Positions 1,468 to 35,422 of a stretch of 64,000 nt of DNA are shown here, in pieces. How positions within the stretch are numbered: the stretch's first letter is position 1; every line of letters begins with the position of its first letter. A program made the position numbers and the translations under genes. The notes beneath the pieces were generated by a model, which worked only from the letters and a program-made list of their open reading frames with translations, had not been told where the DNA came from and ran no database searches. Origin of the DNA: an uncultured Bacteroidales bacterium (GTDB lineage: Bacteria; Bacteroidota; Bacteroidia; Bacteroidales; JAIORY01); assembly GCA_964404485.1 (NCBI GenBank), contig CAYOKJ010000001.1, positions 10,064 through 74,063 of the forward strand, given 5' to 3'.

Positions 1468-1620
1468 TTATCTTTATTCAAGTTAATTATAAATTATTTT
1501 AAAATATAAACACTAAAATAACGCTAGATCATTTATTAAAGTTTATAATATTTTCGGAAAAGATTATAAAATTCGCTAAAATAATTGTTTAAAAACGAGA
1601 AAATTATTAGTAATGATTAA

Positions 1621-2220: not shown

Positions 2221-2293
2221 ATTCTTAATTATTTAATTACTAAATATTCAAAATTCAAAAAAAATAACGTTTAAAATATTTTTTATCAATCCT

Positions 2294-2926
2294 TTAAAAC
2301 TCAAAAATAACTCTTGCTATTAAAAATAAGCCGAAAAGAACCAAACCAACACCTGCTGCTTTATTAATAATATTCATAATTTTTGGGGTCAGGAATTTTT
2401 TAATTTTATAGGAGCCAAAGCATTTAAGAATATCGGTTAGTAAAACTGTGAGTAAAGTAGTGGCAAAAAACAACACAAGAAAAGAAACATCATCGCTATA
2501 TTTTGCAGTAACTCCAACAACAACTCCCATCCAAAAAATCCAAACAAAAGGATTAGCAATATTTAGAAAAAACCCTTTTAAAAAATATGTTATTGGGTTT
2601 GGTTTATTATGAAATTCCTTAGCATTTTCATCATGCATTTTAACTTTTCGGGTATAAGTAACAATCCCAAAAATAATAAGAATTGCCCCACTGGCTATTC
2701 CAAAAGCTAAATGATTAGCAGGTTCGTTAATAATGTTTATTGCCCCAAGGAAACTTAATGTTACTAATGTAACATCACTTAAAAATATACCTATTGCAAG
2801 AATAACTCCCGACCAGAATCCTCTGTGCATACTTGTTTGAATAATTGCAAAAAATGCAGGTCCAAAACCAAAAAATATTGCAAGAGTAAAACCAAGAATT
2901 ACGCCTTCATAAATTGGAGTTATCAT
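2294..2926 (-). CDS. LysE family translocator (amino-acid exporter)
   Basis: 210 aa with 5-6 TM helices and LysE/RhtB-like motifs (FGFGPAFF, NIANPFVWIFW). Confidence 0.8.
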   Translation of the reverse strand: MITPIYEGVILGFTLAIFFGFGPAFFAIIQTSMHRGFWSGVILAIGIFLSDVTLVTLSFLGAINIINEPANHLAFGIASGAILIIFGIVTYTRKVKMHDENAKEFHNKPNPITYFLKGFFLNIANPFVWIFWMGVVVGVTAKYSDDVSFLVLFFATTLLTVLLTDILKCFGSYKIKKFLTPKIMNIINKAAGVGLVLFGLFLIARVIFEF

Positions 2927-3060
2927 ATTTTTTTGTAAAAGTTATATTTTATTATTTACTAAAGAATGCCTAAAGTTTGGAGTGCCTAAAATGCCTAATC
3001 CCGATAGCTATCGGGATAGCTTTATGCCAAATTATTATAAAAATGGCAAGTATTTTATCA

Positions 3061-3094
3061 ACTTTAGTTCACTCTAAACTTTAGTTCACTCTAA
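3061..3094. repeat. perfect 17-bp tandem duplication (ACTTTAGTTCACTCTAA x2)
   Basis: Read directly: 3061-3077 equals 3078-3094. Lies immediately 3' of the GH3 stop codon on the minus strand. Confidence 0.9.
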
Positions 3095-20970: not shown

Positions 20971-21091
20971 ATACAAATATTTCAAACAAAATAAAATAAT
21001 TCATAAAATAGCTCTTAAGACACGTCAAGGTGTGTGTTTACAAAAAAATCTTATAATTTTATTTATCTTTGGATTCTCAACATTTTATAAA

Positions 21092-22612
21092 ATGTCATTA
21101 AATTTTAATATCTATACAAAAAAAAGACGATGGAAATTGTTTCTGTTTGCTCTTGCAGTATTAATTGTTGCCGGCTCACTTTGGTACACAAATTTACTTG
21201 TCAGAAAGTTTGCCAAGGACGAAAGAAACAATGTTAAAATTTGGGTAAACGCTATTCAGCGAAAAGCTAAACTTGTAAAATATACCGATGAATTTTTTGA
21301 CCAAATAAGAACTGAAGAAAAAAGGCGGGCAGAAATACTTGCAGGTGCATATAATATTCTCGGGCAGGAAGACAATTCGATAAACCTTAGTTTTTCTATT
21401 GACATAATTGGAAAAAATACTACTATTCCAGTAATTATTACTGATGATAACAGAGAAATTACTAACTCTGTAAATTACATTTTTAAAACTCCAAACGACA
21501 GTCTTTTTACTCCTGACATCAGAAAAGAGTTTTTAGATTATCCTCCAATTGTTATCAATTATCTTGAGAACAAAAATCTATATTTATATTATAAAAAATC
21601 TATTCTTTTTGTTGAGCTACGCAATGTTCTCGATGATATTATACAATCGTTTTTATCCGAAGTTGTTACAAATTCGGCAAGTGTTCCGGTAATAGTTACC
21701 GATAGTTCGCGCAGGAATATTTTAACTTTCGGGAACATTGACTCTCTGAAAATGCAAGATTCTGTTTTTGTAAAAAGGATTCTGGAAACGATGAATTACG
21801 AAAACGATCCAATAATACTTGATCTTCCGGAACAAGGAATAGTTGATATTTTTTATATGGATTCTGCTTTGCTTACGCAGATAAAATATTATCCTATTAT
21901 TCAATTTTTTATTATTGGATTATTTCTTCTTATTGCATATTTTTTGTTTAGTATCGCCCGAAAGTCAGAGCAAAATCAGGTTTGGGTCGGAATGTCGAAA
22001 GAAACGGCACATCAGTTGGGAACGCCTTTATCCGCACTTATTGCATGGGTCGAACTTCTTAAACTTAAATACAAAAATGATGAGAATATTCCTGAAATGG
22101 AAAAAGATCTTGAACGGCTTGAAAATGTTACTGAACGTTTTTCAAAGATTGGCTCTTCGGCAAATTTAGAGAACATTGATATTATTAAAATTGTTTACGA
22201 CTCGATAGAATATTTTAAAAAACGTACATCCAAAAAGGTAAATTTTTTTATTAATCCTGAAAAAGAAATTAAAATTTTTGTTCCATTAAACAAGCTTCTT
22301 TTTGAATGGGTGATCGAAAACTTATGTAAAAATGCCGTTGATGCAATAGGTGGAAACGGAACAATAAAAATAAATATTTTTGAAGAAGGTAAAAAGATAA
22401 TTCTTGATTTTTCGGATACGGGAAAAGGAATATCCAAAAAACATTTTAAAAGTATATTTAACCCAGGTTTTACAAGTAAAAAGCGTGGCTGGGGACTTGG
22501 ATTATCATTATCAGAAAGAATTATTCAAATGTATCACTCAGGAAAAATTTATGTGCGATCTTCGGCTTTGGAGCAGGGTACTACTTTTAGGATTGTTTTG
22601 AAGAAATCATAA
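21092..22612 (+). CDS. sensor histidine kinase (orphan, two TM segments)
   Basis: H-box SKETAHQLGTPLSAL. HATPase N/G boxes (NLCKNAVDA, DTGKGI, GWGLGLS). The ORF track starts at GTG 21032; ATG 21092 (MSLNFNIYTKKRRWKLF...) is more likely. Confidence 0.8.
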   Translation: MSLNFNIYTKKRRWKLFLFALAVLIVAGSLWYTNLLVRKFAKDERNNVKIWVNAIQRKAKLVKYTDEFFDQIRTEEKRRAEILAGAYNILGQEDNSINLSFSIDIIGKNTTIPVIITDDNREITNSVNYIFKTPNDSLFTPDIRKEFLDYPPIVINYLENKNLYLYYKKSILFVELRNVLDDIIQSFLSEVVTNSASVPVIVTDSSRRNILTFGNIDSLKMQDSVFVKRILETMNYENDPIILDLPEQGIVDIFYMDSALLTQIKYYPIIQFFIIGLFLLIAYFLFSIARKSEQNQVWVGMSKETAHQLGTPLSALIAWVELLKLKYKNDENIPEMEKDLERLENVTERFSKIGSSANLENIDIIKIVYDSIEYFKKRTSKKVNFFINPEKEIKIFVPLNKLLFEWVIENLCKNAVDAIGGNGTIKINIFEEGKKIILDFSDTGKGISKKHFKSIFNPGFTSKKRGWGLGLSLSERIIQMYHSGKIYVRSSALEQGTTFRIVLKKS

Positions 22613-22720: not shown

Positions 22721-25700
22721 TTAGTGATTGTGTTTTAGATCAAACCTGAAAAATAATGGTAAATAAAGAAACAGGACAATAATTGAAAATAATAAACCTC
22801 CGATAGAACCTACAGCCAAAGCAAACCAAAACACTTCGTTTTGCCCGTAAACAATAAAAGGGACTAATCCCAAAATTGTTGAAATAATTGTTAATAATAT
22901 TGGAACTATTTTATTATTGTACGCCTTTAAATACAATTTTAACTTAGAAATATTGTGGTTATTATGTACTTTACGTAAATTATTAAATTCGTTAGTTATA
23001 TAGATTGATGAATTTACAACTATTCCGCTTAACAGAATAAATGAAGCATATCCTCCCTGATCAAAATTATAATCGAAAAGATAGAAAGTTAAGAAAATAC
23101 CTATGAATGATAAGGGTATTATGGAGATTATTGCTAATGGCTGAATAAATGATTCAAATAAAATAGCACAAATAAAATATACCAAAATAATTATCAAGAA
23201 AATTAAATAATACTGCTTTTCATTATTGTCATTCCAAAAACTCCATGATCTTTGTTTAGCATAATATCCAAGTGGCAATTCATCTTTCATTTCATCTAAA
23301 ACACTTTTTAAATGCAAATTGCCAAACTTTGAACTACCAAGATAATTATATTTAACAATGCGTATATATTGCTGATTTTCCTTGTATATACTTGAGCTTG
23401 CTTGTTTTTTTTCTACCTCAGATAAATGTTCAAGTTTTATAGACCCATTTTTTGATACGGGAGAATGAAACATATTCCAAATATCAAATTCTGAACTTTG
23501 TTTAGAGAGTATCTTAATATTTTTATATTTTCCATCAATAATATATGATAGATCAGAATAATTTTGAAGAGATATTTTTTTTAGTTGAGCGTAAATTCCA
23601 TCAACACTTATTCCTTTTAAAGCAAGTTTATTTTTATCAATATCAATATTGTACTCATAAAGTTTTTCTCGTTTCCACCAATAATTTGATCCACTAATAT
23701 TTACTTTTTGCACTCTTGGATGCTTTAAAAGTTTTTCTTCAAATTTCTTTGCTTGTTCATAAAGCATATCATAATTATATCCATATAATACAATAGCATA
23801 ATTAATCATATCACTTGTGCCTGCGCGGCTCGAAAATCCTTTTCCAACACCATAAATATTCCAACTCATGCCCCCGAGATCAATACTTTTTGAAATCAAT
23901 TTGCTTTTCAAAATATAGGGAAATGCAGAATTTTCGAAATCCTTTTTAAAATATATGGTCATCTCTGAATTTTGACTACTATATATTTTTGTAATATATT
24001 GTTGAATTTCGTTGTATTGAGATATGTGACTTTCAATTTGTTTGAAAACCGAATTCATTTGTTTGGTAGTTGACCCTTTTGGCATTGAAGCTGAAACATA
24101 CAAAGCTGTCTTTTCCGGTTTTGAATAATATGATTGCTCGAAAACATAATAATTAAATAGCCGTAAAGTTCCACCAAGAAATTTATTTACCGAAGGTTTA
24201 AAATTCTCAATATACCATTCGCTACCAATAGTATTATTATATAATTCGGCATACCATTTATCTTCTTCAACTTTGTTTGGCAGTAAAAACACCGGAATAC
24301 CAAATGATAAAACAGCTATTGTTATTGCTGTTTTTTTATATCTGGATAAAAACACAATTATTTTTTCATAAAATTTAGTAAAATTTACTACTCTCTTTCT
24401 TCTTCTGGTTTTTAATTTCTTTTGTTGTTCCGAAAATTTGAAAAGATTCATTAGTGCAGGAATAAAAAACAAGGCAACCAATAATGATACCGACATATTA
24501 ACCATTATTATAACAGCAAAATCCCATAAATTCAACTTTATATTTTCAGGCAAAAAGAAAATAATAGATAATGCTGCAATAGTAGTTAAGGTAGATGCTA
24601 AGATAGCAAGAAAAACTTTTTTATTGTGTTGATGTTTTAAATGATCAATCATCACAATGCTATTGTCAATAATAATTCCTAATGATATTGTGATACCTGC
24701 TAATGAGTACAAATGGATTTCTATTCTGAAAAAATAATAAAGAGCAAAACAAATAGAAATATTAGAAAACAAACTGATAATTATTATTAAAACATATCGC
24801 AAATTACGGCTTATCAAAACAACAAACAACAATAGTATAATTATTGTAAAGAAAGTACGATAATAAATTTTTGATAATTCAGCTTTGATATATTCTGTTG
24901 TATCAGAACTTAATAAAATGGAATAGCCAGCTGGCAGATCATTTATTATATTTTGAATATTATCTTTAATTTTATTTGACAGAACCAAATTATTTATCCC
25001 TTTATTAGGATAAATAACAAGATAAATTGAGTTAAGACCGTTGATTCTAAAATATGAATCAGGGGTTTTTTCTTTGTATTTAATGTTTGTAATATCTGTA
25101 AGATATATAATTCTGTTGCCGGTTTTTTTTACAGGAATAGCTGACCAATTTATCTTTTCATCAACTTTATTTCTAAGAATAACTGATATTGATGATACAA
25201 AAGTATCCTTTGTATTAGCCTGATTTTCTATTTTGTATGCTGTGCCTAATGTTTGTTTATCAAAATATTGACGAATTGCTGTTAAAATATCATGATAATT
25301 TATTGAAAGATTTTGTATAATATTTTTGTCATAAGTTATTTGCCACTCAAAGTGAGACGAACCGTAAACTTCTATTTTATCAATACCATTTATTACAGAT
25401 AATTTCTTTTTAATGCTTTTTTCGGCATATTGTTGAATGAAATTTGGAGAAACAGGTCCATTTAAAGTATATGTTAATACCGGTTTTAATTCTGCATTAT
25501 CGGGACGATTGACCGAAATAACTGGATAGGATAATTCGACAGGTAATTTAGAATAAACCTGTCTGATAATTGAAGAAATCTCGAAACGAACAAAATCAAT
25601 ATCAGTATGTTTATCAAACGAAATTGTAATTTGTCCGTTGTTTTTTGACGATACAGAAGTTATTTTACTTATCCCTCTAACTTTGCTAAACAATCCTTCT

Positions 25701-25972
25701 AATTCGCTTGTAACCTCTTGCTCCAATATTTCGGGCGAAGCATTTTGCCAGTAATAGCTCACGGTAAGAGAAGGTAATGTTGATGAAGGATTTAACTGCA
25801 CCGACAATAGTGGAATAAATGATAATCCAAGCAAAACCAATGCAAAAAATATTATTGCTGTAGAAAAAGCCTTATTTGACTTTCGCATTGACCCATAAAT
25901 TATTTGATTATTATTTGCGTTAAGTTTATTCATTCTATTTGTAAAATTAATATAATTATTTACACATTGCAT
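22721..25972 (-). CDS. efflux RND transporter permease subunit (AcrB/HAE family), no cognate adaptor gene adjacent
   Basis: About 1080 aa with 12-TM AcrB-like architecture. The true start is probably internal (MRKSNKAFSTAIIFFALVLLG, about 25888). Divergent from the LytTR gene. Confidence 0.85.
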   Translation of the reverse strand: MQCVNNYINFTNRMNKLNANNNQIIYGSMRKSNKAFSTAIIFFALVLLGLSFIPLLSVQLNPSSTLPSLTVSYYWQNASPEILEQEVTSELEGLFSKVRGISKITSVSSKNNGQITISFDKHTDIDFVRFEISSIIRQVYSKLPVELSYPVISVNRPDNAELKPVLTYTLNGPVSPNFIQQYAEKSIKKKLSVINGIDKIEVYGSSHFEWQITYDKNIIQNLSINYHDILTAIRQYFDKQTLGTAYKIENQANTKDTFVSSISVILRNKVDEKINWSAIPVKKTGNRIIYLTDITNIKYKEKTPDSYFRINGLNSIYLVIYPNKGINNLVLSNKIKDNIQNIINDLPAGYSILLSSDTTEYIKAELSKIYYRTFFTIIILLLFVVLISRNLRYVLIIIISLFSNISICFALYYFFRIEIHLYSLAGITISLGIIIDNSIVMIDHLKHQHNKKVFLAILASTLTTIAALSIIFFLPENIKLNLWDFAVIIMVNMSVSLLVALFFIPALMNLFKFSEQQKKLKTRRRKRVVNFTKFYEKIIVFLSRYKKTAITIAVLSFGIPVFLLPNKVEEDKWYAELYNNTIGSEWYIENFKPSVNKFLGGTLRLFNYYVFEQSYYSKPEKTALYVSASMPKGSTTKQMNSVFKQIESHISQYNEIQQYITKIYSSQNSEMTIYFKKDFENSAFPYILKSKLISKSIDLGGMSWNIYGVGKGFSSRAGTSDMINYAIVLYGYNYDMLYEQAKKFEEKLLKHPRVQKVNISGSNYWWKREKLYEYNIDIDKNKLALKGISVDGIYAQLKKISLQNYSDLSYIIDGKYKNIKILSKQSSEFDIWNMFHSPVSKNGSIKLEHLSEVEKKQASSSIYKENQQYIRIVKYNYLGSSKFGNLHLKSVLDEMKDELPLGYYAKQRSWSFWNDNNEKQYYLIFLIIILVYFICAILFESFIQPLAIISIIPLSFIGIFLTFYLFDYNFDQGGYASFILLSGIVVNSSIYITNEFNNLRKVHNNHNISKLKLYLKAYNNKIVPILLTIISTILGLVPFIVYGQNEVFWFALAVGSIGGLLFSIIVLFLYLPLFFRFDLKHNH

Positions 25973-26114
25973 TCAGCTAATTATCAAAGTATAATGCTAT
26001 CCATAATTTAATTTGTTAATAAGTTAATAATATCTTTGTTGTTTAAAACGGTCACCTTTTTACAGTTTCCTCAATTAATATATATACCTGTATGTTAATT
26101 AAAAATATTTATTT

Positions 26115-26468
26115 ATGAAAAAACTACAAGTTACTACCCAAAATGGTTTTCAGTTTATTAATCCATTAACTATTTTATTTCTGAAAGCAAGCAATAATTA
26201 TACTGAAATTTTTTATACAGATAATAGTGATACACAACTAATTTGCAAAACTATAGGAAAAATTGAAAAATGTTTGCCAAGCGAATTATTTTTCAGATGC
26301 CACAGAACGTATATTATTAACATCAAGCAAATAACTGAGTTTAAATATTTGAATTGTGGTGGTATAATTACTTTAAAAAATAATCAGAAGATAAAACTTG
26401 CAAAACGAAAAAAGAAAATGTTCTTAGAAATTATCAAAAAAAATACATTTTCCCCGCTTACTCAGTAA
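26115..26468 (+). CDS. stand-alone LytTR family DNA-binding protein (no receiver domain)
   Basis: 117 aa. LytTR signature ...FFRCHRTYIINIKQI... Its last codons overlap the first 21-bp repeat unit of the downstream promoter. Confidence 0.85.
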   Translation: MKKLQVTTQNGFQFINPLTILFLKASNNYTEIFYTDNSDTQLICKTIGKIEKCLPSELFFRCHRTYIINIKQITEFKYLNCGGIITLKNNQKIKLAKRKKKMFLEIIKKNTFSPLTQ

Positions 26469-26517
26469 AACCGACCGCTCACTAAATAATCCGTACCGTT
26501 TACAAAAGACTTTCTTT
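26455..26517 (+). promoter_or_regulatory. 21-bp-phased direct repeats (2 good units plus 1 degenerate), candidate LytTR operator
   Basis: CGCTTACTCAGTAAAACCGAC (26455-75), CGCTCACTAAATAATCCGTAC (26476-96), then the degenerate CGTTTACAAAAGACTTTCTTT. Abuts the -33 region. Confidence 0.6.
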
Positions 26518-26521
26518 TTTG

Positions 26522-26553
26522 CTTGACAGGGAGACATTTATAATATAACTTTG
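26522..26553 (+). promoter_or_regulatory. Bacteroidetes-type promoter (-33 cTTG, 20-nt spacer, -7 TAACTTTG)
   Basis: TAACTTTG at 26546-26553 fits TAnnTTTG. TTG at 26523-26525. Start codon is 85 nt downstream. Confidence 0.55.
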
Positions 26554-26637
26554 CTATTAAAATAAATAATATTTCCAATTTAAAATCCAATACTATTTAT
26601 TATTCAAATTTTATTTATTAACTAAAAATTATGTATT

Positions 26638-26871
26638 ATGAAAAAGAAAACTATTAACAAATTATTTGTAGCAATATCTGTTACAATTTTTGGTATATTA
26701 CTTTTTTTTGCAACACCAAATAAATCTTATACTGCTGAGCCTACTACTTCAATATACCGTACATGTTGGAAATGGTGTGATCAACATTATGTTATTAGAT
26801 GTCGTCCTAACGGATCGGAATGTCTTGCTTCATGGCAAGATTTATGTAGTGATTCAACAAATGAACAATAG
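26638..26871 (+). CDS. small secreted Cys-rich peptide precursor 1 (77 aa; predicted 44-aa mature part with 5 Cys)
   Basis: MKKKTINKLFVAISVTIFGILLFFATPNKSYTA|EPTTSIYRTCWKWCDQHYVIRCRPNGSECLASWQDLCSDSTNEQ. Sec-type signal. First gene behind the conserved promoter. Confidence 0.6.
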   Translation: MKKKTINKLFVAISVTIFGILLFFATPNKSYTAEPTTSIYRTCWKWCDQHYVIRCRPNGSECLASWQDLCSDSTNEQ

Positions 26872-26878
26872 AACAATT

Positions 26879-26935
26879 ACCTGCTGTATTATGTAAAGTA
26901 TTGTAATATTAGAATACAAGTAGAAAACAGCAGGT
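26879..26935 (+). terminator. stem-loop after peptide gene 1 (candidate partial terminator/attenuator)
   Basis: ACCTGCTGT (26879-87) pairs with ACAGCAGGT (26927-35). An inner GTATT/AATAC stem is present. Followed by TATTTTG. Confidence 0.4.
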
Positions 26936-26956
26936 TATTTTGATAATAATAATAAT

Positions 26957-28180
26957 ATGTCAAAATACTTTTACCTTTTACTTACTTTATTAATCTTGAT
27001 GTTAATATCATGCAATGAAAAAGTTCACAATATAAAAGAGCAAAAATTTATAAAAAAAATATCAATTAACCCAACAAAAAATAATCTCTCAAAATTATCT
27101 GACATATTATCACAAAATTATAAAATAATTAGCTTGGAATCAAATGAAAATAGCCTAATTGGTAAAATTGATAAGATCGTTTTTTTAGATAGTAAAATTT
27201 TTATTTTAGATAAAGATAAAACAAAATCAATATTCATTTTTAATAATAATGGAAAATATGAATCAAAAATATCACGCTTTGGAGAAGGACCAAATCAATA
27301 TATCGAATTAGGTGATTTTTATATTGATAGTATTACAAAAACAGTAAATATTTTAAATACTTTTCCTGCTCGCTTGATGACATACGATTATCTTGGTAAT
27401 TTCCTTGCTGAAAAAAGAATTGCAGATTTTGCCTGCCAGATTGCCATCAACTCCGACAGCAATTTCTGTCTTTATTTGGGCAATAACATAACTTCTGAAA
27501 CAGTTTTTCATGACCTGATAATACAAAACAATAATAATGAAATTGTTGCTAAATATTTTCCTATTGACTCAGGTGATCAGTCAAAAGCTGTGATGATACC
27601 TTCCAATTTTTGTAGTTTTGGCGATTCCTTATCATTTATTCGTCCATTTTCCGACACAGTATTTGACATCACAACCAATGATATGAAAACTAAGTTCGTG
27701 TTTGATTTCGGAAAACACAATATGCCCAATGACTTCTTCAAAAACAAAAACTTAAGAAGCAATATACCACGCTTCTTTAATAAAGCCCAAAAGCTTATTA
27801 ACAAAAATCAATATGCATCCGATATTCAACCATATTACGAATCAGAGTTTCTTATTTACTTTTCATTTCTTTTTCAGAATAAAAAGAATTATTCATTTTA
27901 TTCAAAGAAGTCAAAGAAAGTATATCACACAAATTTAATTAGAAATGATATTATCCCCATTAAAATAAGTAAAGTTATAAAAGTGAAAAAAAAACAATTA
28001 ATTACAATTGTTGATGCATACGAATTTAAAAACGGAATTACGAATTTTTATAACGAATTAAATAAAACAAAGAAAAAGCATTTTTTTAAATCTAATTCTA
28101 AATTGGTTTTAACTGCCGTTAAAATAAAAAATACAGATAACCCAATCCTTATTGTTTACAACATAAAAGAATCGTTTTAA
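26957..28180 (+). CDS. 6-bladed beta-propeller lipoprotein (BF3164-like family)
   Basis: 407 aa. Lipobox LMLISC. The family-typical stretch KIFILDKDKTKSIFIFNNNGKYESKISRFGEGPNQY. Repeated beta-strand blades. Confidence 0.7.
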   Translation: MSKYFYLLLTLLILMLISCNEKVHNIKEQKFIKKISINPTKNNLSKLSDILSQNYKIISLESNENSLIGKIDKIVFLDSKIFILDKDKTKSIFIFNNNGKYESKISRFGEGPNQYIELGDFYIDSITKTVNILNTFPARLMTYDYLGNFLAEKRIADFACQIAINSDSNFCLYLGNNITSETVFHDLIIQNNNNEIVAKYFPIDSGDQSKAVMIPSNFCSFGDSLSFIRPFSDTVFDITTNDMKTKFVFDFGKHNMPNDFFKNKNLRSNIPRFFNKAQKLINKNQYASDIQPYYESEFLIYFSFLFQNKKNYSFYSKKSKKVYHTNLIRNDIIPIKISKVIKVKKKQLITIVDAYEFKNGITNFYNELNKTKKKHFFKSNSKLVLTAVKIKNTDNPILIVYNIKESF

Positions 28181-28186
28181 TAAAGC

Positions 28187-28816
28187 ATGTATAAAGATAA
28201 ATTAAAACAAATATCTATTCCGATTGCAATTATACTAATGGCTGCACTTATTTTGATATATTTTTATTTTAATAGTAAAATTGAAAGCTTTGAGCACAAT
28301 ATTTTTGTACTTGAAAAAAATGCTAAATCATATAAAAGCATGACTAACTCAATTCTACATTCCAATTACTTGCGAATAAAAAATGATGACCAGCCTTTCT
28401 CCCACAACATTTTTCTTTATAGTGATGATAATGATAGTATTACCTTTACAAATTTGATAAAGCAAAATAAAAAATTGCTGGTTTTCAGGTATTCCGAATT
28501 AAACTGCATGGCTTGTATTGACAAAGAAGTACTAAATTTAAAACAGTTCTTAAAAAACAGCAACGTGAAAATAATTATCATAGCAACCTATTCAAGCATG
28601 CGCGATTTATACTTATTTAAAAGGATAAACCAAATACCAAAAGCAAAAATTTATAACATTAAAAACCAACAAATGGGTCTTCCAATAGAAAAAAACAATA
28701 TCCCATATTATTTTGTTGCTGAAACTAATTTTGTAGCTGGAAAGTTTTTTGTGCCTAATAAATTATTCCCTGAATATTCTCAAAAATATTTATCAGAAAT
28801 TAATAAACTACCCTGA
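28187..28816 (+). CDS. membrane-anchored thioredoxin-fold protein with CxxC (CMAC)
   Basis: 209 aa. N-terminal signal-anchor helix. KKLLVFRYSELNCMACIDKE (beta1-CxxC-alpha1). A cis-Pro-like NIPYYFVAE follows later. Confidence 0.65.
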   Translation: MYKDKLKQISIPIAIILMAALILIYFYFNSKIESFEHNIFVLEKNAKSYKSMTNSILHSNYLRIKNDDQPFSHNIFLYSDDNDSITFTNLIKQNKKLLVFRYSELNCMACIDKEVLNLKQFLKNSNVKIIIIATYSSMRDLYLFKRINQIPKAKIYNIKNQQMGLPIEKNNIPYYFVAETNFVAGKFFVPNKLFPEYSQKYLSEINKLP

Positions 28817-28925
28817 GGCAGAGCCATAGGGGTATTAAATTGAGTTTGCTTTGCAAACATAATTGTTTTCGACCCAGAGGGTCGAGGAATTAAACCACGA
28901 ATGATTAAAAATAATACATTTTCCC

Positions 28926-28988
28926 CGCTTACTCAGTAAAACCGAAAGCTCACTTAGTAAAACCGACCGCTCACTAAATAATCCGTAC
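28926..28988 (+). promoter_or_regulatory. 21-bp-phased direct repeats (3 good units), candidate LytTR operator
   Basis: CGCTTACTCAGTAAAACCGAA (28926-46), AGCTCACTTAGTAAAACCGAC (28947-67), CGCTCACTAAATAATCCGTAC (28968-88). Confidence 0.6.
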
Positions 28989-29013
28989 CGTTTACAAAAG
29001 ACTTTCTTTTTTG

Positions 29014-29045
29014 CTTGACAGAGAGACATTTATAATATACCTTTG
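29014..29045 (+). promoter_or_regulatory. Bacteroidetes-type promoter (-33 cTTG, 20-nt spacer, -7 TACCTTTG)
   Basis: TACCTTTG at 29038-29045. TTG at 29015-29017. Same geometry as copy 1. Confidence 0.55.
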
Positions 29046-29129
29046 GTGTCAAAATAAATAATATTTTCAATTTAAAATACGATACTATTTATTATTCAAA
29101 TTTAATTTATTAACTAAAAATTATGTATT

Positions 29130-29354
29130 ATGAAAAAATTAACTGTATTTTTATCAATTGCTGTAAGTGTAATAATGTTTTTTGCCATTGCAGTAAATGT
29201 TTATGCCGAACCTCCTACTCAAGGTAGTGTTTTTGTTTCATCAAACGATTGTGAATATCAATTTGACGCCTATGATGTGAATGATAAATGTTTCTGTATG
29301 TGGAGTGGTATTGAGAATGAGTTCTGCTCATGTTGTAGTAGTAGTATCGATTGA
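29130..29354 (+). CDS. small secreted Cys-rich peptide precursor 2 (74 aa; predicted 48-aa acidic mature part with 6 Cys)
   Basis: MKKLTVFLSIAVSVIMFFAIAVNVYA|EPPTQGSVFVSSNDCEYQFDAYDVNDKCFCMWSGIENEFCSCCSSSID. Confidence 0.6.
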   Translation: MKKLTVFLSIAVSVIMFFAIAVNVYAEPPTQGSVFVSSNDCEYQFDAYDVNDKCFCMWSGIENEFCSCCSSSID

Positions 29355-29375
29355 TGAAATTTGAATTTTAACAAT

Positions 29376-29403
29376 AAGCCTTATGGCAATTGCCATAAGG
29401 CTT
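29376..29403 (+). terminator. perfect 28-nt palindrome after peptide gene 2 (candidate partial terminator/attenuator)
   Basis: AAGCCTTATGGCAATTGCCATAAGGCTT is its own reverse complement. Followed by AATTTTATATTTATT. It swallows the ORF-track ATG at 29383. Confidence 0.5.
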
Positions 29404-29418
29404 AATTTTATATTTATT

Positions 29419-30543
29419 ATGAAGAAGATTTTATTTGGATTATTATTAATACTGATTAGTTGCAATAATAAAAACAGTACAATACAAGAAAAACAACATA
29501 TTAAAGCAATCAGTAGAAATATTGATCAGGAGAGTTTGAAACTAGATGCTGAAGTTTCATTTGTGCAATTAGAAACTTCAAAGGAATGTCTTTTGGGGTA
29601 TATTATAAATATAGAAGTTACTGATGATTATATTTATATTTTGGATAGAAGTAGCTTTTTTGTTTTTACAAATAAAGGAAATTTTATAAAAAAGATTAAA
29701 AGAGGGAAAGGTCCAGGTGAATTAACCAGAGCAATAAATTTTAGTTTAGATTTAGCTCGAAATGAAATATATATAATAGAGATGGGCAATCTTTTACATA
29801 TATACAACAATCTTGCTGATTATAAAGAAACACATAAGTTGGATGGAAGTTTTATTGATGTTGTGAGAGTAGATGATGATAATTTTCTTTTATATACTGT
29901 GCTTCCACCAAAATATGAAGAATTTTTAATTTCAGTTTATAATAAAAAGAGTAAAAATATTACTAACAAATTCATTTCATCTAAAGATTTGTTAATGAAA
30001 GATTTGTCTATATTAACATATAATAATTTTTTTGTTAAAAACAGTGAAATATTCTTTTCAGCATCCAATTCAAGAAACATATATAAATACATAGGAAATG
30101 GCATGGAGACAACTTACTCAATTGATTTTAGGAATTTGGAACCACCTATATCATATTTTAGCATGTTTGATGATGTACGAAATTTCAAGAAAATGGTATA
30201 TAATGATGATTACGTTGGATTTTTAAATTATTGTTATGATCTTGGTAAGCTTGTGCTTTTTGGATTTAAATGTAAAGACTTTAACTGTGGGATTAAATAT
30301 AAAGATGAGAATATTATGTACATGAGTTCAGTTTCTGAACTATTTGATTTACCTCAAACACCTTCATTTGAAAGGCCTTATAATGCAAATGACAATCAAA
30401 TTCACTTTGTTTATTTTAATGATATTTTATTAAATGATAATTTACAAAAAAAAGAAGCGTTTTTAGAGATTGGCAATAAAATTATTCAAGTAAATGAAAA
30501 TAATAACCCAATTATTGTTACTCTCAAAATAAAAGAAAAGTAA
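29419..30543 (+). CDS. 6-bladed beta-propeller lipoprotein (BF3164-like family), paralogue 2
   Basis: Start moved to MKKILFGLLLILISC (lipobox). YIYILDRSSFFVFTNKGNFIKKIKRGKGPGEL matches the family G-x-GPGE motif. About 25% identical to 26957..28180 by eye. Confidence 0.7.
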   Translation: MKKILFGLLLILISCNNKNSTIQEKQHIKAISRNIDQESLKLDAEVSFVQLETSKECLLGYIINIEVTDDYIYILDRSSFFVFTNKGNFIKKIKRGKGPGELTRAINFSLDLARNEIYIIEMGNLLHIYNNLADYKETHKLDGSFIDVVRVDDDNFLLYTVLPPKYEEFLISVYNKKSKNITNKFISSKDLLMKDLSILTYNNFFVKNSEIFFSASNSRNIYKYIGNGMETTYSIDFRNLEPPISYFSMFDDVRNFKKMVYNDDYVGFLNYCYDLGKLVLFGFKCKDFNCGIKYKDENIMYMSSVSELFDLPQTPSFERPYNANDNQIHFVYFNDILLNDNLQKKEAFLEIGNKIIQVNENNNPIIVTLKIKEK

Positions 30544-30544
30544 T

Positions 30545-31168
30545 ATGAAACTTAAATGGAATATTTTTTATTTTATTTTATCAGCAATACTATTAAGTAT
30601 AATTTTAATTTTACTATATAATTTTAAAACAAAATTAGAAACAGAGTTTAATAAAAAATACTCCCAAATCAAAAATGAATGTGATTTAGTTCAAGATGTA
30701 TTAATGAATAATTTAACTAATTCAAATTCTAATATTGGATTTAGATTTAATGATGATATTATTGTAGAGGACACAGCTTGCAATAAGTTGAAGTTAATAA
30801 ATATAATCAATGGAGAAAATGTTTTAATATATAGAATATCAGACACACATTGTTCTACGTGTGACGTTGCTGGTATAAAAAGTTTGTTAAGAACCAACTC
30901 AAAAATACCTTATAATAAGATTATTATAATAGGATCTTTTTATAATACAAAATTGTTGAATTCTTATATTACTGCTAATAATATTAAATATAGGTCTTAT
31001 AATCTCAAACAAAGCATTAATATTAAAGCTGAGAAATTTAACTTCCCCTATTTCATTATAGTAAATAAAAATTTAGAAGTACTAAGTTGTTTTTTTCCCG
31101 AAAAGACAAAACCATATTTAACTGAGTATTTTTTTTCAGGAATAAAGCATTTATTAAATAATTATTAA
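30545..31168 (+). CDS. membrane-anchored thioredoxin-fold protein with CxxC (CSTC), paralogue 2
   Basis: 207 aa. N-terminal anchor helix, NVLIYRISDTHCSTCDVAG, and later FNFPYFIIVNKN. Begins 1 nt after the stop of the propeller gene. Confidence 0.65.
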   Translation: MKLKWNIFYFILSAILLSIILILLYNFKTKLETEFNKKYSQIKNECDLVQDVLMNNLTNSNSNIGFRFNDDIIVEDTACNKLKLINIINGENVLIYRISDTHCSTCDVAGIKSLLRTNSKIPYNKIIIIGSFYNTKLLNSYITANNIKYRSYNLKQSINIKAEKFNFPYFIIVNKNLEVLSCFFPEKTKPYLTEYFFSGIKHLLNNY

Positions 31169-31219
31169 AACTAATTTACATAATTAACGAAATAATAAAG
31201 CTACAATAGTTGTTTTGTT

Positions 31220-31254
31220 TTTGCATTTTAATATCTTTTTTATTTCTACCTTTG
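31220..31254 (+). promoter_or_regulatory. possible promoter of the adaptor-RND operon (-7 TACCTTTG)
   Basis: TACCTTTG at 31247-31254, 22 nt before ATG 31276. TTTG at 31220-31223, but the 23-nt spacer is longer than consensus. Confidence 0.35.
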
Positions 31255-31275
31255 TCTAAAATCCATACTCCTAAA

Positions 31276-32337
31276 ATGAAAATACTAAAATTCATTTCTT
31301 TTATCCTTGTTTTAATTTCTATCTCATGTACTAACAACAATAAGGATATTGAAGACAGCAAGATCGAAAACAAATCGAATGATGAAATACAAAAAGTTGA
31401 GATAGTTGAAGTATTTCCACAAGTTTTTTATAATCAAATAATAGCAAACGGTAAACTTTCGGCGGTTCAAAAAGCAGAAATTAAATTTAAAACCTCAGGA
31501 ACACTAAACAAGATATTAGTAAAAAACGGAGACAGAGTCAAAAAAAATCAAACAATTGCAGTTATTGAAAATACTACACAAAATTTAGAAATTGCATCAG
31601 CCAAAGATGCTTTGGATAATGCAAGAATTGAGTTAAACTCGTTAATTATCGGGTACGGTGGCAAGCAAAATGATACTTTAAGTGTACCTATTTATATTTA
31701 CGAAAATCTTAAAATTCAAAGCATGTATAATAGTACATTAAATTCTTTACAAAAAGCAAAACTTAATTTTTCTTATACAATTTGTAAAGTTCCATTTAAC
31801 GGAATAATAGGCAACTTATCTATAAAAAATCATAACTTTATTAATTCATCCGATGATTTTTGTACTATTATTAATGATAAATATTTTGAAGTCGAATATT
31901 CGATTATCGAAACAGAAGCACCTTATTTATCATTAAATCAAACTGTACAAATAATTCCTTTTTCAGATGAAAAATTAAAAATAGAAGGAAAAATATCTGA
32001 AATAAATCCTATGGTTGATGATGACGGTTTAATAAATATTAAAGCATTAATAAAAAATCCTGCAAATAATTTTCTTGATGGTATGAATGTTAAAGTAATT
32101 ATTAAAACACCGGTAAAAAATCAACTTGTTATACCAAAAGAAGCACTCGTACTAAGGTCTAACCGAGAAGTTGTTTTTACTTACAAAAACCAATTAGCAA
32201 AATGGAATTACGTAACAATTGCTTATGAAAACAGTAATACTTATGCCATTTTGGAAGGAATAAATGCCGGTGATTCGGTAATCTATAAAGGAAATTTGAA
32301 TCTGGCGCATGATGCTAAGGTCGTGCTTAATAAATAA
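31276..32337 (+). CDS. efflux RND transporter periplasmic adaptor subunit (lipoprotein)
   Basis: Start moved to MKILKFISFILVLISISC (lipobox). Lipoyl-like hairpin (TSGTLNKILVKNGDRVKKNQTIAVIE) and a beta-barrel C-terminus. Confidence 0.85.
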   Translation: MKILKFISFILVLISISCTNNNKDIEDSKIENKSNDEIQKVEIVEVFPQVFYNQIIANGKLSAVQKAEIKFKTSGTLNKILVKNGDRVKKNQTIAVIENTTQNLEIASAKDALDNARIELNSLIIGYGGKQNDTLSVPIYIYENLKIQSMYNSTLNSLQKAKLNFSYTICKVPFNGIIGNLSIKNHNFINSSDDFCTIINDKYFEVEYSIIETEAPYLSLNQTVQIIPFSDEKLKIEGKISEINPMVDDDGLINIKALIKNPANNFLDGMNVKVIIKTPVKNQLVIPKEALVLRSNREVVFTYKNQLAKWNYVTIAYENSNTYAILEGINAGDSVIYKGNLNLAHDAKVVLNK

Positions 32338-32343
32338 TTAATA

Positions 32344-35300
32344 GTGATTAAATTCCTCATACATCGTCCCATAGCAGTTATAATGACTCTTGTAGCATTA
32401 GTTACTCTTGGTGTGATTACTGCCTATAAATTACCCGTTTCCTTACTTCCTAATATTGATATTCCTGAAATTACAATACAAATAAATTATAAAAACACTT
32501 CGGCGAGAGAATTAGAAAATGCAGTTGTAAAACCCATACGCAACCAGTTACTTCAGTTAAATCATTTAAAAGATATTAAAAGTGAAACAAAAGATGGTTA
32601 TTCTATACTTAATTTAAAATTTGATTATAAAACAAATATCAATTATGCTTTTATCGAAACCAATGAAAAGATAGATGCATTAATGAGTTCTATGCCGAGA
32701 GAAATGGAACGTCCGAAAATTATAAAAGCTTGTGCTTCCGATATTCCGGTTTTTAAAATAAGTATTATTCCTAAGGACGAATATTGGTATAAAGAAAATG
32801 ATTTACTCAAATTAAGTGAATTGGCAGAATCAGTAATTAAGAAAAGAATTGAACAACTTGATGTTGTTGCAATGGTTGATATTAGCGGTTTACAATCAGC
32901 AGAACTTGCAATAATTCCAGACATAAAAAAAATACAAAATCTTAATATTGATTATTCTAAAATAGAAAATGCAATTTCAAATAATAATATTGATCTGGGA
33001 AACATTACAATTAAAAATGGACAATATCAATACAACATTAGATTCTCTTCCATTTTACAAACAAAAGAAGATATTGGCAATATTTATTTGAGTACCGAAA
33101 AAAAGCGTATTATTCAACTTAAAAATATTGCCGAGATAAAAGTTCGTCCTCAAAAACGAACCGGAATGTACTTATATGATAATAAGGAAGCCATTATTAT
33201 GTCGGTAATTAAACAAGCTGATGCACAAATGGCTCAGTTAAAGGAAAGCCTTGATAAATTAGTTGACGAATTTAACAATAATTATAACGAAATTGAATTT
33301 AAAGTCAGTCAGGACCAAACTCAATTACTAAAATTTTCAATTAACAACCTTAAACAAAGCTTATTATTTGGCGGACTTTTAGCCATGGTGATTATGTTTA
33401 TTTTTATGAGAGATTACAAATCACCATTTCTTATTATCATAAGCATTCCTGCTTCATTGATTATCAGCATGTTTTTTCTTTATTTATCAGGAATATCAAT
33501 TAATATTATTTCACTCTCGGGTTTAATTCTCGGTGTAGGAATGATGGTTGATAATTCAATAATTGTAATTGATAATATTAATCAATATCTTGATAAATCA
33601 TATTCTCTTAACAAAGCTTGCATTTTGGGTACAAACGAAATAATTCGTCCTTTGATAAGCTCTGTTTTAACAACTTGTGCGGTTTTTGTTCCCCTTGTTT
33701 CTTTGAGTGATATTTCGGGAGCTTTGTTTTACGATCAGGCAGTAACTATTGCAATTAGTTTAACTACTTCATTATTGGTTTCAATCATGATATTACCTGT
33801 TTTATTTCGCTTATTTTATATTAAAAACAAAAACAGTAACAATTATTTGCTTAGCAAAAGTTATAATTTATTCGACATTGAAAAGATTTATGAAAAAAGC
33901 ATAAATTTTATCTTTAAAAATAAACTTATTGTATTGTTACTTTTTGTTCTATTAATTCCGCTGGGTATTTTTTTATTCAAGAATATTAAAAAACAAAGTT
34001 TTCCTGATATTAAACAAACCGCTGTTATATTTAATATTGACTGGAATGAAAATATAAACCTTGATGAAAACAAAAAACGAATAATAAATCTGTTTGAACA
34101 AATTAATACTCCTGTGCTGTATAAAAATATATTGATAGGTGAACAGCAATTTTTACTAAATAAAGAACAAGAAAAAAGTCAATCTGAAGCATCTGTATTT
34201 ATAAAAACTAAATCAACAAAAAATATAAAAAATATAAAAAATGAAATCGATAGTTTATTAAAATCAAATTATCAAAATATTGAATTTTCTTTTCAATCTC
34301 CCAAAAATGTTTTTGAGCAATTATTTAAAAATGATGAATCCTCCTTTGTGGTAAAAATTCAAAGTATCAATAAAAATATCCCTCCTAAAATTAACAAAGT
34401 GAATAATTTTATTACTCAATTACAAGATAAACCTTATGCACAATCAATTAACGAAATACCAATAAAAAACAATTTAGTAATATCAATATTATCCGACAAA
34501 TTACTAATTTATAATGTTTCATATCAAACTTTAATTGATCAACTCAAATCATCTTTTAATGAAAATAAAATAGGATTATTAAAATCGAATAATAAATTTA
34601 TTCCCATTATTATAGGTGAAAAAAATAAAATTCTTTTTGATATTATTAAAAATGTAAAAATTAAAAATATTAATAATGAACTTATTCCAATCAGCTCGTT
34701 AATATCAATTTCAACAAGGTCGGATTATAAAACTATTATTGCCGATAAACAAAGCGAATACATTCCGGTAAATTTATTAGCTAATAATAATGCTAAGATG
34801 ATTGAAGAAGACATAAATAACATTCTTAAAAATAGCTCAGAATTAGAAGCCGATTTTTCAGGTAGTATTTTTCGTAACCGCGAACTTTTAAATGAATTAG
34901 AAATTGTATTATTAATATCCGTTTTATTATTATATTTTATTTTGGCTGCACAATTCGAATCATTAATTCAACCAATAATTGTATTACTTGAAATTTTATT
35001 TGATCTTTCGGGTGCATTAATAATGTTAATTATTTTTGGTAACTCATTAAATATCATGTCAGCTATTGGTATCATTGTAATGGGTGGAATAATAATAAAT
35101 GATTCGATATTAAAAGTTGACACAATAAACCAATTAAAACGTCAGGATATTCCTTTACTAAAAGCAATAAAGATTGGAGGAAAACGTAGATTAAAACCAA
35201 TTATTATGACTTCACTCACCACTATATTAGCTTTATTCCCTTTATTGTTTTCATCGGGTATTGGAGTCGAATTACAAATACCATTAGCTTTGGCAATTAT

Positions 35301-35379
35301 CGGTGGAATGACAATTGGTACAATCGTCAGTTTGTATTTTATTCCGATTGCCTATTGGTTTATTTATAAAAATTCATGA
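32344..35379 (+). CDS. efflux RND transporter permease subunit (AcrB/HAE family)
   Basis: 1011 aa. GTG start, MIKFLIHRPIAVIMTLVAL. 12-TM AcrB architecture. Confidence 0.9.
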   Translation: MIKFLIHRPIAVIMTLVALVTLGVITAYKLPVSLLPNIDIPEITIQINYKNTSARELENAVVKPIRNQLLQLNHLKDIKSETKDGYSILNLKFDYKTNINYAFIETNEKIDALMSSMPREMERPKIIKACASDIPVFKISIIPKDEYWYKENDLLKLSELAESVIKKRIEQLDVVAMVDISGLQSAELAIIPDIKKIQNLNIDYSKIENAISNNNIDLGNITIKNGQYQYNIRFSSILQTKEDIGNIYLSTEKKRIIQLKNIAEIKVRPQKRTGMYLYDNKEAIIMSVIKQADAQMAQLKESLDKLVDEFNNNYNEIEFKVSQDQTQLLKFSINNLKQSLLFGGLLAMVIMFIFMRDYKSPFLIIISIPASLIISMFFLYLSGISINIISLSGLILGVGMMVDNSIIVIDNINQYLDKSYSLNKACILGTNEIIRPLISSVLTTCAVFVPLVSLSDISGALFYDQAVTIAISLTTSLLVSIMILPVLFRLFYIKNKNSNNYLLSKSYNLFDIEKIYEKSINFIFKNKLIVLLLFVLLIPLGIFLFKNIKKQSFPDIKQTAVIFNIDWNENINLDENKKRIINLFEQINTPVLYKNILIGEQQFLLNKEQEKSQSEASVFIKTKSTKNIKNIKNEIDSLLKSNYQNIEFSFQSPKNVFEQLFKNDESSFVVKIQSINKNIPPKINKVNNFITQLQDKPYAQSINEIPIKNNLVISILSDKLLIYNVSYQTLIDQLKSSFNENKIGLLKSNNKFIPIIIGEKNKILFDIIKNVKIKNINNELIPISSLISISTRSDYKTIIADKQSEYIPVNLLANNNAKMIEEDINNILKNSSELEADFSGSIFRNRELLNELEIVLLISVLLLYFILAAQFESLIQPIIVLLEILFDLSGALIMLIIFGNSLNIMSAIGIIVMGGIIINDSILKVDTINQLKRQDIPLLKAIKIGGKRRLKPIIMTSLTTILALFPLLFSSGIGVELQIPLALAIIGGMTIGTIVSLYFIPIAYWFIYKNS

Positions 35380-35422
35380 TAAAACAATAAATGTAAAATT
35401 AGATTTAGCCTTGCCAAACACC

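Follow-up and report, generated by a model that had tools for sequence, protein, structure and literature searches.

An open reading frame (ORF) of 74 codons, found in the 64,000-nucleotide stretch of contig CAYOKJ010000001.1 analysed here (the window), from an uncultured Bacteroidales bacterium, may well encode the precursor of a small, acidic, disulfide-rich peptide that is destined for the extracytoplasmic space. The predicted product, peptide 2, would be the cargo of a three-gene cassette whose other members encode a DUF5128/NHL β-propeller lipoprotein and a membrane-anchored thioredoxin-like protein. We put the probability of this reading, taken as a whole pathway from promoter to released effector, at about 0.5. 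It is nearly certain that the ORF is a genuine gene for an exported Cys-rich peptide and that the function of this peptide is bound up with the propeller and the thioredoxin-like protein.

The length of the ORF is without significance, for about 21 random ORFs this long are expected in a 64-kb window of 30% GC. A spurious ORF would be no surprise against such an AT-rich background, but the comparative data leave that explanation with practically no chance of being right. Eight other lineages have a homologue in this slot, the cysteine framework is conserved, and the ORF has its own predicted promoter and terminator. Comparison with a variant that is 77% identical gives a dN/dS of 0.31 overall and of 0.06 in the 29-codon Cys core, both from small counts. 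Cysteine accounts for 6 of the 48 residues of the predicted mature peptide, as against 0.86% of residues in the long ORFs of the window (P about 4e-6). Judged by such comparisons, among which conservation is decisive, the peptide 2 ORF is a real gene. The original prediction had pointed to orthologous loci as the place to look for a small ORF; eight hold a homologue in the slot, and in one, L035, there is a relic only. Variation among strains is uninformative: the ten metagenome contigs that carry the locus are all 99.97-100% identical, and there is no population-level signal.

The signal sequence of peptide 2 has recognisable n-, h- and c-regions, consisting of MKK, a hydrophobic core that is long at 19 residues, and VYA. 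Cleavage is predicted between VYA26 and E27, where Val at −3 and Ala at −1 fit the −3/−1 rule by inspection; a −1 Ala can be placed in the same way in most of the nine family members. The mature peptide would have 48 residues, including nine Asp or Glu and one Lys, for a net charge of about −8. Its six cysteines are arranged as C...CFC...CSCC (that is, C, CxC and CxCC), and the C-terminus is SSSID. A recount of the sequence bears out the original prediction on the ORF, the 48-residue tail, its acidity, the single Lys and the layout of the cysteines.

The junction A|EP after a hydrophobic segment is common to unrelated peptide families, occurring as YTA|EPT, VYA|EPP, VKA|EPD and AKA|EPP (window 26736-26744 and 29205-29213; L026 1247-1255; L037 2646-2654), and may reflect a shared processing requirement. 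Genes for signal peptidase I (S26) lie beside cassettes in four Bacteroidales loci (L016 9311-10108, L020 9675-10022, L022 6424-7317 and L035 1759-2496), as identified by a Pfam match for L035 and by eye from an SM-x-P motif for the other three. These neighbours hint at dedicated cleavage of the small proteins; the S26 motif was not found in the window.

Peptide 2 belongs to a rare, undescribed family, of which nine members were found: peptide 2 and eight homologues in the same genomic slot. A word-indexed protein search with peptide 2 returned the peptide itself and the 77%-identical variant (P0002) only. The orphan status implied by that result was overturned by a full HMMER scan of the mature 48 residues against 1.84 billion representative proteins, which yielded three further genuine small homologues (P0018, P0019 and P0022), and four more (L023, L026, L036 and L037) were recovered through the neighbours of the cassette thioredoxin-like protein. 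Four other matches of the scan (P0017, P0020, P0021 and P0023) proved to be repetitive junk and not homologues, and the 90-residue length of P0002 is a product of read-through at a TGA, the true ORF ending ...GDDID-stop. A scan of metagenome contigs with the family alignment returned a contig that was already known and no other. No family member matches any model in Pfam or NCBIfam, peptide 2 has no match in Rfam, and a search of the PDB with the family profile found nothing. Weak, sub-threshold Pfam matches (E>0.005) to Cys-rich pre-pro-peptides such as Conotoxin and Myticin-prepro were disregarded as compositional.

The peptide slot of L035, a Bacteroidales metagenome genome (GCA_016342555.1), spans 2496-2851 between the S26 signal peptidase gene and DUF5128, and contains no intact small ORF. 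It holds a start-less relic, NLNYEDVCSCSSSQFPDHCSCCNTSTL-stop, followed by a hairpin, which looks like the remains of a decayed peptide-2-like gene.

In all nine sequences MKK and a hydrophobic stretch are followed by a linker of variable length (5-14 residues) and by a core that can be written C-[EQ]-Y-x-F...C-x-C-[MVL]-W-[NS]-G-[IV]-x3-4-C-x-C-(x0-2)-C. Four cysteines were initially invariant, and C3 and C4 alone are so once L036 and L037 are added. The cysteine count is even (4, 6 or 8) in eight of the nine members, and cysteines disappear jointly: C1 with C6 in P0018, and C2 with C5 in L037. The simplest reading of this co-loss is a predicted nested ladder of disulfides, C1-C6, C2-C5 and C3-C4, which in precursor numbering would join C41 to C69, C54 to C68 and C56 to C66. 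In mature numbering the positions of C2 and C5 (28+42) and of C3 and C4 (30+40) each total 70, and equal sums correspond to the register expected of two antiparallel strands. Protegrin, a cationic animal peptide of about 18 residues with a 4-residue turn, is a β-hairpin with a CxC...CxC disulfide ladder. The CxC...CxC pattern, the nested pairing (outer with outer, inner with inner) and the antiparallel register would be common to both peptides. Peptide 2 differs in its anionic character, its 9-residue loop and its third predicted disulfide, C1-C6, the whole connectivity here being a prediction.

The gene for every one of the nine family members is immediately followed by DUF5128, of which a contig end sometimes leaves no more than the first codons. 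Wherever the contig is long enough, the next product is a protein of about 200 residues with an N-terminal transmembrane (TM) helix and an invariant CxxC motif. The cassette-2 propeller scores 101 bits against PF17170, above the gathering score of 22.9. Its start is likely to be at 29419, because the mechanical ORF start at 29383 (29383-29418) runs into a hairpin and the ATG at 29419 gives a lipoprotein signal. A profile of 16 propeller homologues matched 4raa, an uncharacterised PDB entry, at E 6e-34, and NHL repeats from TRIM2/3/71, Brat and Thin at E 1e-22 to 1e-10; the single propeller sequence matched nothing in the PDB.

The thioredoxin-like protein of cassette 2 has no match among the Pfam and NCBIfam thioredoxin models, and its profile gave only a marginal PDB match, to 3tdg (E 0.25). 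The assignment comes from an AlphaFold2 model built on 13 sequences (predicted local distance difference test, pLDDT, 89), which comprises a long N-terminal helix and a thioredoxin fold, with C103 and C106 just before helix 104-115 and P168 before strand 169-173. The CxxC motif and the cis-Pro are invariant across the 13 sequences. When the model was compared with the PDB by Foldseek, the top matches were ResA, TlpA, Sco-like and Bacteroides thiol-disulfide oxidoreductases (E about 1e-6), so that the modelled fold can be placed in the TlpA/ResA/DsbE class.

Peptide and partner genes are separated by the hairpin, which with its U tract has a predicted free energy (dG) of −24 kcal/mol (z −6.1) and is identical in L014. 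Of the 14 cassettes examined across loci, 13 have a comparable stem-loop behind the small ORF. The layout would be typical of loci in which a structural peptide outnumbers its accessory proteins.

The partners of the peptide have diversified along with it. Among themselves, propellers beside peptide-2-family genes share 35-73% identity, and with any other propeller at most 22%; the thioredoxin-like proteins split likewise (44-78% within, as against 19-23%). In these sequence comparisons the clades of both proteins track the peptide family. The propeller of cassette 1, the neighbouring cassette in the window, is 22% identical to that of cassette 2 and groups with the L029 and L011 propellers that stand beside peptide-1-like genes, at 32-34%. 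Distant homologues of the thioredoxin-like protein occur in metagenome-derived genomes that are assigned, according to record titles, to Bacteroidales, Dysgonomonas, Tannerella and Chitinophagaceae; at most of these loci the gene again follows DUF5128, and a small or medium ORF that contains Cys often lies upstream.

Peptide 1, the product of cassette 1, represents a family distinct from that of peptide 2, with four conserved cysteines in the pattern ...C-x7-RC-x6-C-x7-C. It is homologous to two 73-residue peptides of L029 (BLASTP E 4e-11), and its fifth cysteine (RTCWKWC) is found in the window copy only. Outside the window, members of this family lie at L029 10165-10386 and 11704-11925 and at L011 414-623. 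The predicted mature form of peptide 1 has six acidic and four basic residues, a net charge of about −2 and a pI of about 5; being itself mildly acidic, it does not have the charge opposite to that of peptide 2 that had been claimed for it. The claim that the two cassettes make very different products from shared control regions was sound, since peptides 1 and 2 fall into unrelated families. The suggestion of a diversified repertoire is likewise supported by the comparison of related genomes, in which the unrelated families occur in differing tandem combinations: L029 has three to four cassettes and L034 two to three. Slot 1 behind the LytTR gene of L026, a syntenic relative, is taken by a DUF4221-type cassette (1169-3064), which encodes a 63-residue acidic peptide with two cysteines, a DUF4221 protein and a 151-residue lipoprotein with a CxxC motif (CEGC).

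The candidate activator for the promoters of both peptides is a stand-alone LytTR protein encoded upstream of peptide 1, and orthologous LytTR genes hold the same position in L026 and L037. The two control regions (26456-26652 and 28948-29144) are 93% identical over 197 nucleotides (nt), or 94.2% over 190 nt by BLAST, and thus near-identical, as the original prediction had them. Both contain 9-bp direct repeats with spacers of 12 bp, inside the 11-13 bp range of a LytTR regulon. A published LytTR direct-repeat consensus is, for example, ACCGCTTAT-12 bp-ACCACTTAC (PMC6193735), which the window repeats fit in sequence and in spacing. The first repeat before peptide 1 falls within the 3′ end of the LytTR ORF; the degenerate fourth repeat before peptide 2 stems from an internal 21-nt tandem duplication (window 28900-28953). 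The six exact motif matches in the 64-kb window all lie within the two upstream regions, a count that is circular because the motif was derived from those same sites. A relic of the last LytTR codons precedes peptide 2, which indicates that a duplication encompassing both the 3′ end of LytTR and the promoter gave rise to the cassette-2 control region.

The last repeat before peptide 2 is followed by 18 nt, CTTG, 20 nt and TACCTTTG, elements that we take to represent the −33/−7 promoter consensus of Bacteroidetes. Transcription would start near 29050, giving a 5′ untranslated region (UTR) of about 80 nt. The box TAnnTTTG is invariant in alignment A5 (window, L026 and L014), and the layout direct repeat-18 nt-CTTG-20-21 nt-TAnnTTTG recurs in L026 and L037 with different repeat sequences, each locus having its own LytTR gene. 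A sigma-70 promoter was rejected, the distance from TTGACA to TATAAT being only 10 nt. Rfam has no match in 25900-31500, and the conserved 5′ UTR of peptide 2 is therefore not a known RNA element; it also lacks a significant fold. L029 and L034 have no LytTR gene. Their peptide genes nonetheless share, within each locus, near-identical sequences of about 120-200 nt just ahead of the gene (L029 5761-6000, 8100-8351 and 9933-10164; L034 5571-6000 and 8004-8542), which differ from locus to locus and include a long conserved 5′ leader. This arrangement suggests other shared regulators or leader RNAs.

These features can be assembled into a pathway. The LytTR protein would bind the four 21-nt-phased repeats and activate the CTTG-20 nt-TACCTTTG promoter, whose anatomy is plain in the DNA. 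Most transcripts would end at the hairpin past the peptide stop codon, and read-through would supply a smaller amount of mRNA for the propeller and the thioredoxin-like protein. Sec would then export the 74-residue precursor, to be cut after VYA26. In the periplasm the six cysteines would form the nested ladder, with the cassette thioredoxin-like protein catalysing or proof-reading the pairing. The propeller would bind its own peptide in particular, whether to confer specificity, to escort the peptide or to protect the producing cell. From the periplasm the folded peptide would then probably be expelled by the neighbouring RND adaptor and pump. The pump is a candidate for this role; an RND pump adjoins the cassette in most peptide-2-family loci, and the adaptor is syntenic in L023, L026, L031 and L035. 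Outside the cell the peptide would be an effector, most likely an antagonistic one resembling a bacteriocin; that its end function is antibacterial is a tentative proposal, which may well prove wrong.

Several observations weigh against the pathway or parts of it. The AlphaFold2 prediction for mature peptide 2 (5 sequences) has a pLDDT of 53 and is unusable. At 19 residues, the signal has a hydrophobic core long enough that an uncleaved membrane anchor is possible, and a net charge of −8 is atypical of membrane-active bacteriocins, which are mostly cationic. L037 and peptide 1 carry five cysteines each and break the even-number pattern. Since the peptide slot of L035 holds a relic only, the propeller and thioredoxin-like pair can evidently persist without the peptide. 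Members of the TlpA/ResA class are often reductases, the fold does not tell the redox direction, and no partner for re-oxidising or re-reducing the thioredoxin-like protein is evident. The locus has no gene for an outer-membrane factor or channel alongside the RND pump. Finally, the predicted LytTR control is seen in three lineages only (the window, L026 and L037), L029 and L034 using other upstream regions.

A rival reading is that the peptide never leaves the envelope. Possibly anchored in the membrane by an uncleaved signal, it might belong to a propeller/thioredoxin-like complex as one of its subunits, mimic a substrate of that complex or regulate it, for example in sensing redox or envelope stress. 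The long hydrophobic segment, the missing channel gene and the strict one-to-one linkage and co-diversification with the pair would all suit such a resident partner, and related Bacteroidales cassettes encode proteins of 145-161 residues with an N-terminal hydrophobic segment. We regard this as unlikely, because small residues at −1 and −3 and the A|EP junction are conserved in several families, S26 genes adjoin cassettes in the four loci named above, the hairpin implies a large excess of peptide over its partners, and tandem arrays of differing peptides resemble a repertoire and not a housekeeping complex. The CxC and CxCC clusters and numerous carboxylates of peptide 2 raise another explanation, that of a periplasmic metal-binding peptide (metallothionein- or metallochaperone-like), kept reduced by a TlpA-like reductase and passing its metal to RND efflux as CusF serves CusCBA. 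The closest fold class (TlpA, ResA and Sco-type) does reduce cysteines before metallation, an RND adaptor and pump are adjacent, and the adaptor also scores with the CzcB/NccB family, though below the cut-off (E 6e-21). A metal role is nonetheless distinctly unlikely. The best NCBIfam match of the pump is the multidrug RND_permease_2, ahead of CusA/CzcA; the cysteines are lost in pairs, as in a nested disulfide ladder, and their numbers are mostly even; the carboxylate count varies across the family, the net charge of P0019 being only −1.7; the peptide has no His or Met metal motifs; and a co-diversifying, peptide-specific propeller would be unexpected for a generic metal buffer. Peptide 2 also matches no metallothionein or metallochaperone family model in Pfam or NCBIfam.

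A LytTR-type promoter with phased direct repeats, one control region common to two differing peptides, and a histidine kinase gene not far upstream (21032-22612) would be in keeping with a pheromone-like signal that feeds back on the LytTR circuit, as do the induction peptides of Gram-positive class II bacteriocin regulons. This seems quite improbable given that the LytTR protein has no receiver domain and its own gene no preceding repeats, that L029 and L034 keep the peptide cassette without LytTR, and that known pheromone systems do not devote a propeller and an oxidoreductase to each peptide. The original prediction had also offered a two-component toxin, with peptides 1 and 2 as its basic and acidic halves. 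Their shared, duplicated control region makes co-expression probable, yet the pairing is very improbable: peptide 1 lacks the basic charge, a cognate propeller and thioredoxin-like protein come with each peptide, and the two assort independently. A peptide-1-type partner accompanies the peptide-2-family cassette in 2 of the 7 loci with enough flank, the others having different partners or none, and L026, L031, L034, L036 and L037 hold peptide-2-type cassettes without a peptide-1-type one.

Under the preferred reading, in which peptide 2 is a folded and exported cargo, the closest functional likeness is to a bacteriocin locus that depends on Sec, is controlled by LytTR and has a disulfide enzyme of its own; the system is a member of no described family. 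Sec-dependent bacteriocins of the enterocin P/divergicin A type have a classical signal peptide with a signal-peptidase-I site in place of a leader. The position of their immunity gene, directly downstream of the peptide gene, is occupied here by the co-diversifying propeller lipoprotein, which might have an immunity role. The bacteroidetocins, class IIf bacteriocins of Bacteroidetes (PMC6671954), resemble peptide 2 in being ribosomal peptides of ~40-48 residues with an even number of cysteines, in occurring in Bacteroidota as diverse members across genomes, and in adjoining a thiol oxidoreductase gene of their own, to whose product formation of the disulfides is attributed. Their loci encode an oxidoreductase of their own because Bacteroides lack general disulfide machinery (PMC6671954); here the corresponding gene is that at 30545-31168, with its invariant CxxC and ResA/TlpA-like fold. 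Bacteroidetocins have a 15-residue GG leader, a C39-peptidase ABC transporter and a 5-TM protein, whereas at the peptide 2 locus their place is taken by a Sec-type signal, an NHL propeller lipoprotein and an RND pump; peptide 2 is strongly anionic and shares no sequence similarity with bacteroidetocins. Peptide 2 contains no GG motif, and no ABC/C39 gene lies in 26000-35400. Leader-dependent enzymes that modify ribosomally synthesised peptides (radical SAM, YcaO, LanM and similar) are likewise absent from 26000-35400, which offers nothing of the kind beyond the thiol oxidoreductase and the propeller, and none of five cassette proteins matched a PADLOC defence model at E<=0.01.

Mature STII, a heat-stable enterotoxin (ST) of E. 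coli, has 48 residues, the same length as predicted mature peptide 2. STII leaves the cytoplasm through Sec, undergoes oxidation in the periplasm and is expelled by a tripartite pump (PMC5985334). The ST peptides (STII/STb and STa; PMC5985334) share with peptide 2 a Sec-dependent pre-peptide of ~70 residues, and the route proposed here is similar to theirs, in which disulfides form in the periplasm and the outer membrane is crossed through a tripartite efflux pump that takes periplasmic substrates. They rely on the general DsbA and the ABC-type MacAB-TolC, in contrast to the cassette oxidoreductase and RND pump of the present locus, which has no linked outer-membrane factor; there is no sequence relationship.

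In thioredoxin-like and propeller partnership the cassette recalls human NHLRC2 and plant SOQ1, in which thioredoxin-like and NHL domains form one substrate cleft (PMC6107167). In those proteins, too, a thioredoxin-like domain and a six-bladed NHL propeller are paired and exposed to a compartment that is extracytoplasmic or lumenal, and the joint cleft of NHLRC2 is thought to bind a partner (PMC6107167). They are single polypeptides with the thioredoxin-like domain first and an active site CC(I/V)NC; here the genes are separate and translationally coupled, the propeller comes first, the active site is CSTC or CMAC, and a candidate substrate is encoded next door. NHLRC2 was not among the PDB matches of the propeller profile.

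Known LytTR regulatory systems (PMC6193735) also feature stand-alone LytTR proteins and 9-bp repeats with a 12-bp gap, ACCGCTTAC-like and just upstream of the promoter, and in the LytTR-regulated bacteriocin promoters (PMC6193735) the controlled genes similarly encode small secreted peptides. The window departs from them in having three or four repeats and not two, a distance of 18 nt and not ~10 nt to the promoter element, and a promoter of Bacteroidetes type. No membrane-inhibitor gene stands beside LytTR, the next gene being peptide 1, and 25973-26114 contains no autoregulatory repeats.

A likeness in gene order exists to the uncharacterised NVEALA (PF14055)/DUF5128 cassettes of Bacteroidales, an association that is in part presumed. 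At L022, L018, L017 and L020 the order is the same: a small protein with a hydrophobic N-terminus and C-terminal cysteines, a hairpin, a DUF5128 lipoprotein and a TM-CxxC protein. The DUF5128 context is common to peptide 2 (E 7e-29) and to the NVEALA-like peptide of L022, which itself scores 20.2 bits against the NVEALA model, below the 27-bit cut-off. Peptides 1 and 2 do not match that model even at E<=10, nor do the other eight members of the peptide-2 family match it. Neither peptide has the spacer of ~20 residues or the motif that characterise NVEALA proteins, and the signal peptide of both is plain.

A broader and more doubtful proposition is that the split NHL-propeller and thioredoxin pair is a peptide-specific oxidative folding machine that defines an unrecognised, Bacteroidota-wide class of Sec-exported disulfide-ladder peptides, with peptide-2, peptide-1 and NVEALA sub-families that each co-evolve with their own pair and exit through the RND pump. 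Were it true, these peptides would be the first natural substrate type for the thioredoxin-NHL architecture of human NHLRC2 and plant SOQ1. Few routes are known in Gram-negative bacteria for small disulfide-rich secreted peptides, and Bacteroidota largely lack general disulfide machinery (as stated for Bacteroides, PMC6671954). The bundling into cassettes, the tandem arrays and the wide distribution indicate a store of secreted effectors that is as yet unexplored, with antimicrobials possibly among them. The scheme would also explain what DUF5128 lipoproteins do, and possibly NVEALA proteins as well, and would offer a tractable bacterial model of cooperation between thioredoxin-like and NHL domains. 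A full-text literature search on NVEALA, DUF5128, BF3164 and DUF4934 returned nothing relevant, and the cassette is undescribed there.

Features of the peptide 2 locus and its neighbours (window coordinates)
Feature	Coordinates	Strand	Details
LytTR regulator, stand-alone	26115..26468	+	117 residues, no receiver domain; Pfam LytTR PF04397 E 2e-18, residues 14-107
Three 9-bp direct repeats upstream of peptide 1	26453..26503	+	21-nt phase; starts 26453 CCCGCTTAC, 26474 ACCGCTCAC, 26495 ACCGTTTAC
Peptide 1 precursor	26638..26871	+	77 residues; predicted mature 44 residues (EPTT...NEQ), 5 Cys
Stem-loop and U-rich tract between peptide 1 and its propeller gene	26879..26935	+	dG −18.6 kcal/mol, z −2.6
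Cassette-1 DUF5128/NHL six-bladed β-propeller lipoprotein	26957..28180	+	lipobox LISC; Pfam DUF5128 E 2.5e-42
Cassette-1 membrane-anchored thioredoxin-like protein	28187..28816	+	CxxC is CMAC; CxxC and cis-Pro invariant in alignments A1, A2
Relic of last LytTR codons	28900..28940	+	...NTFSPLTQ-stop; repeat families D1, D2; alignment A5
Four phased 9-bp repeats upstream of peptide 2 (candidate LytTR boxes)	28924..28995	+	28924 CCCGCTTAC, 28945 AAAGCTCAC, 28966 ACCGCTCAC, 28987 ACCGTTTAC
Putative Bacteroidetes-type promoter	29014..29045	+	−33-like CTTG 29014-29017; −7 box TACCTTTG 29038-29045
Peptide 2 precursor	29130..29354	+	ATG start, 74 residues; MKKLTVFLSIAVSVIMFFAIAVNVYAEPPTQGSVFVSSNDCEYQFDAYDVNDKCFCMWSGIENEFCSCCSSSID
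Peptide 2, predicted signal peptide	29130-29207	+	MKKLTVFLSIAVSVIMFFAIAVNVYA
Peptide 2, predicted mature peptide	29208-29351	+	48 residues
Peptide 2, stop codon	29352-29354	+	
Hairpin (putative terminator/attenuator)	29375..29414	+	perfect 13-bp stem, 4-nt loop (29375-29404), then AUUUUAUAUU
Cassette-2 DUF5128/NHL six-bladed β-propeller lipoprotein	29419..30543	+	MKKILFGLLLILISC..., lipobox LISC; Pfam DUF5128 E 7e-29
Cassette-2 membrane-anchored thioredoxin-like protein	30545..31168	+	N-terminal TM helix, CxxC is CSTC, cis-Pro; start codon 1 nt past propeller stop
RND periplasmic adaptor	31273..32337	+	TIGR01730 RND_mfp E 2.8e-48; start uncertain, TTG 31210 or ATG 31273
RND inner-membrane pump	32344..35379	+	Pfam ACR_tran E 1.4e-171

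Two observations concern the surroundings of these cassettes. In L023 (3647-5552), as also in L024 and L025, an insertion sequence (IS) element with a DDE_Tnp_1 domain lies between the DUF5128 and thioredoxin-like genes; the thioredoxin-like ORF of L023 is truncated N-terminally to 183 residues (P0009), and the cassette may therefore be inactivated in that lineage. The upstream flank of the window locus consists of the sensor histidine kinase gene already mentioned and of a second, divergent RND-type pump gene (22721-25972, 1083 residues), which is syntenic in L026 and L029.

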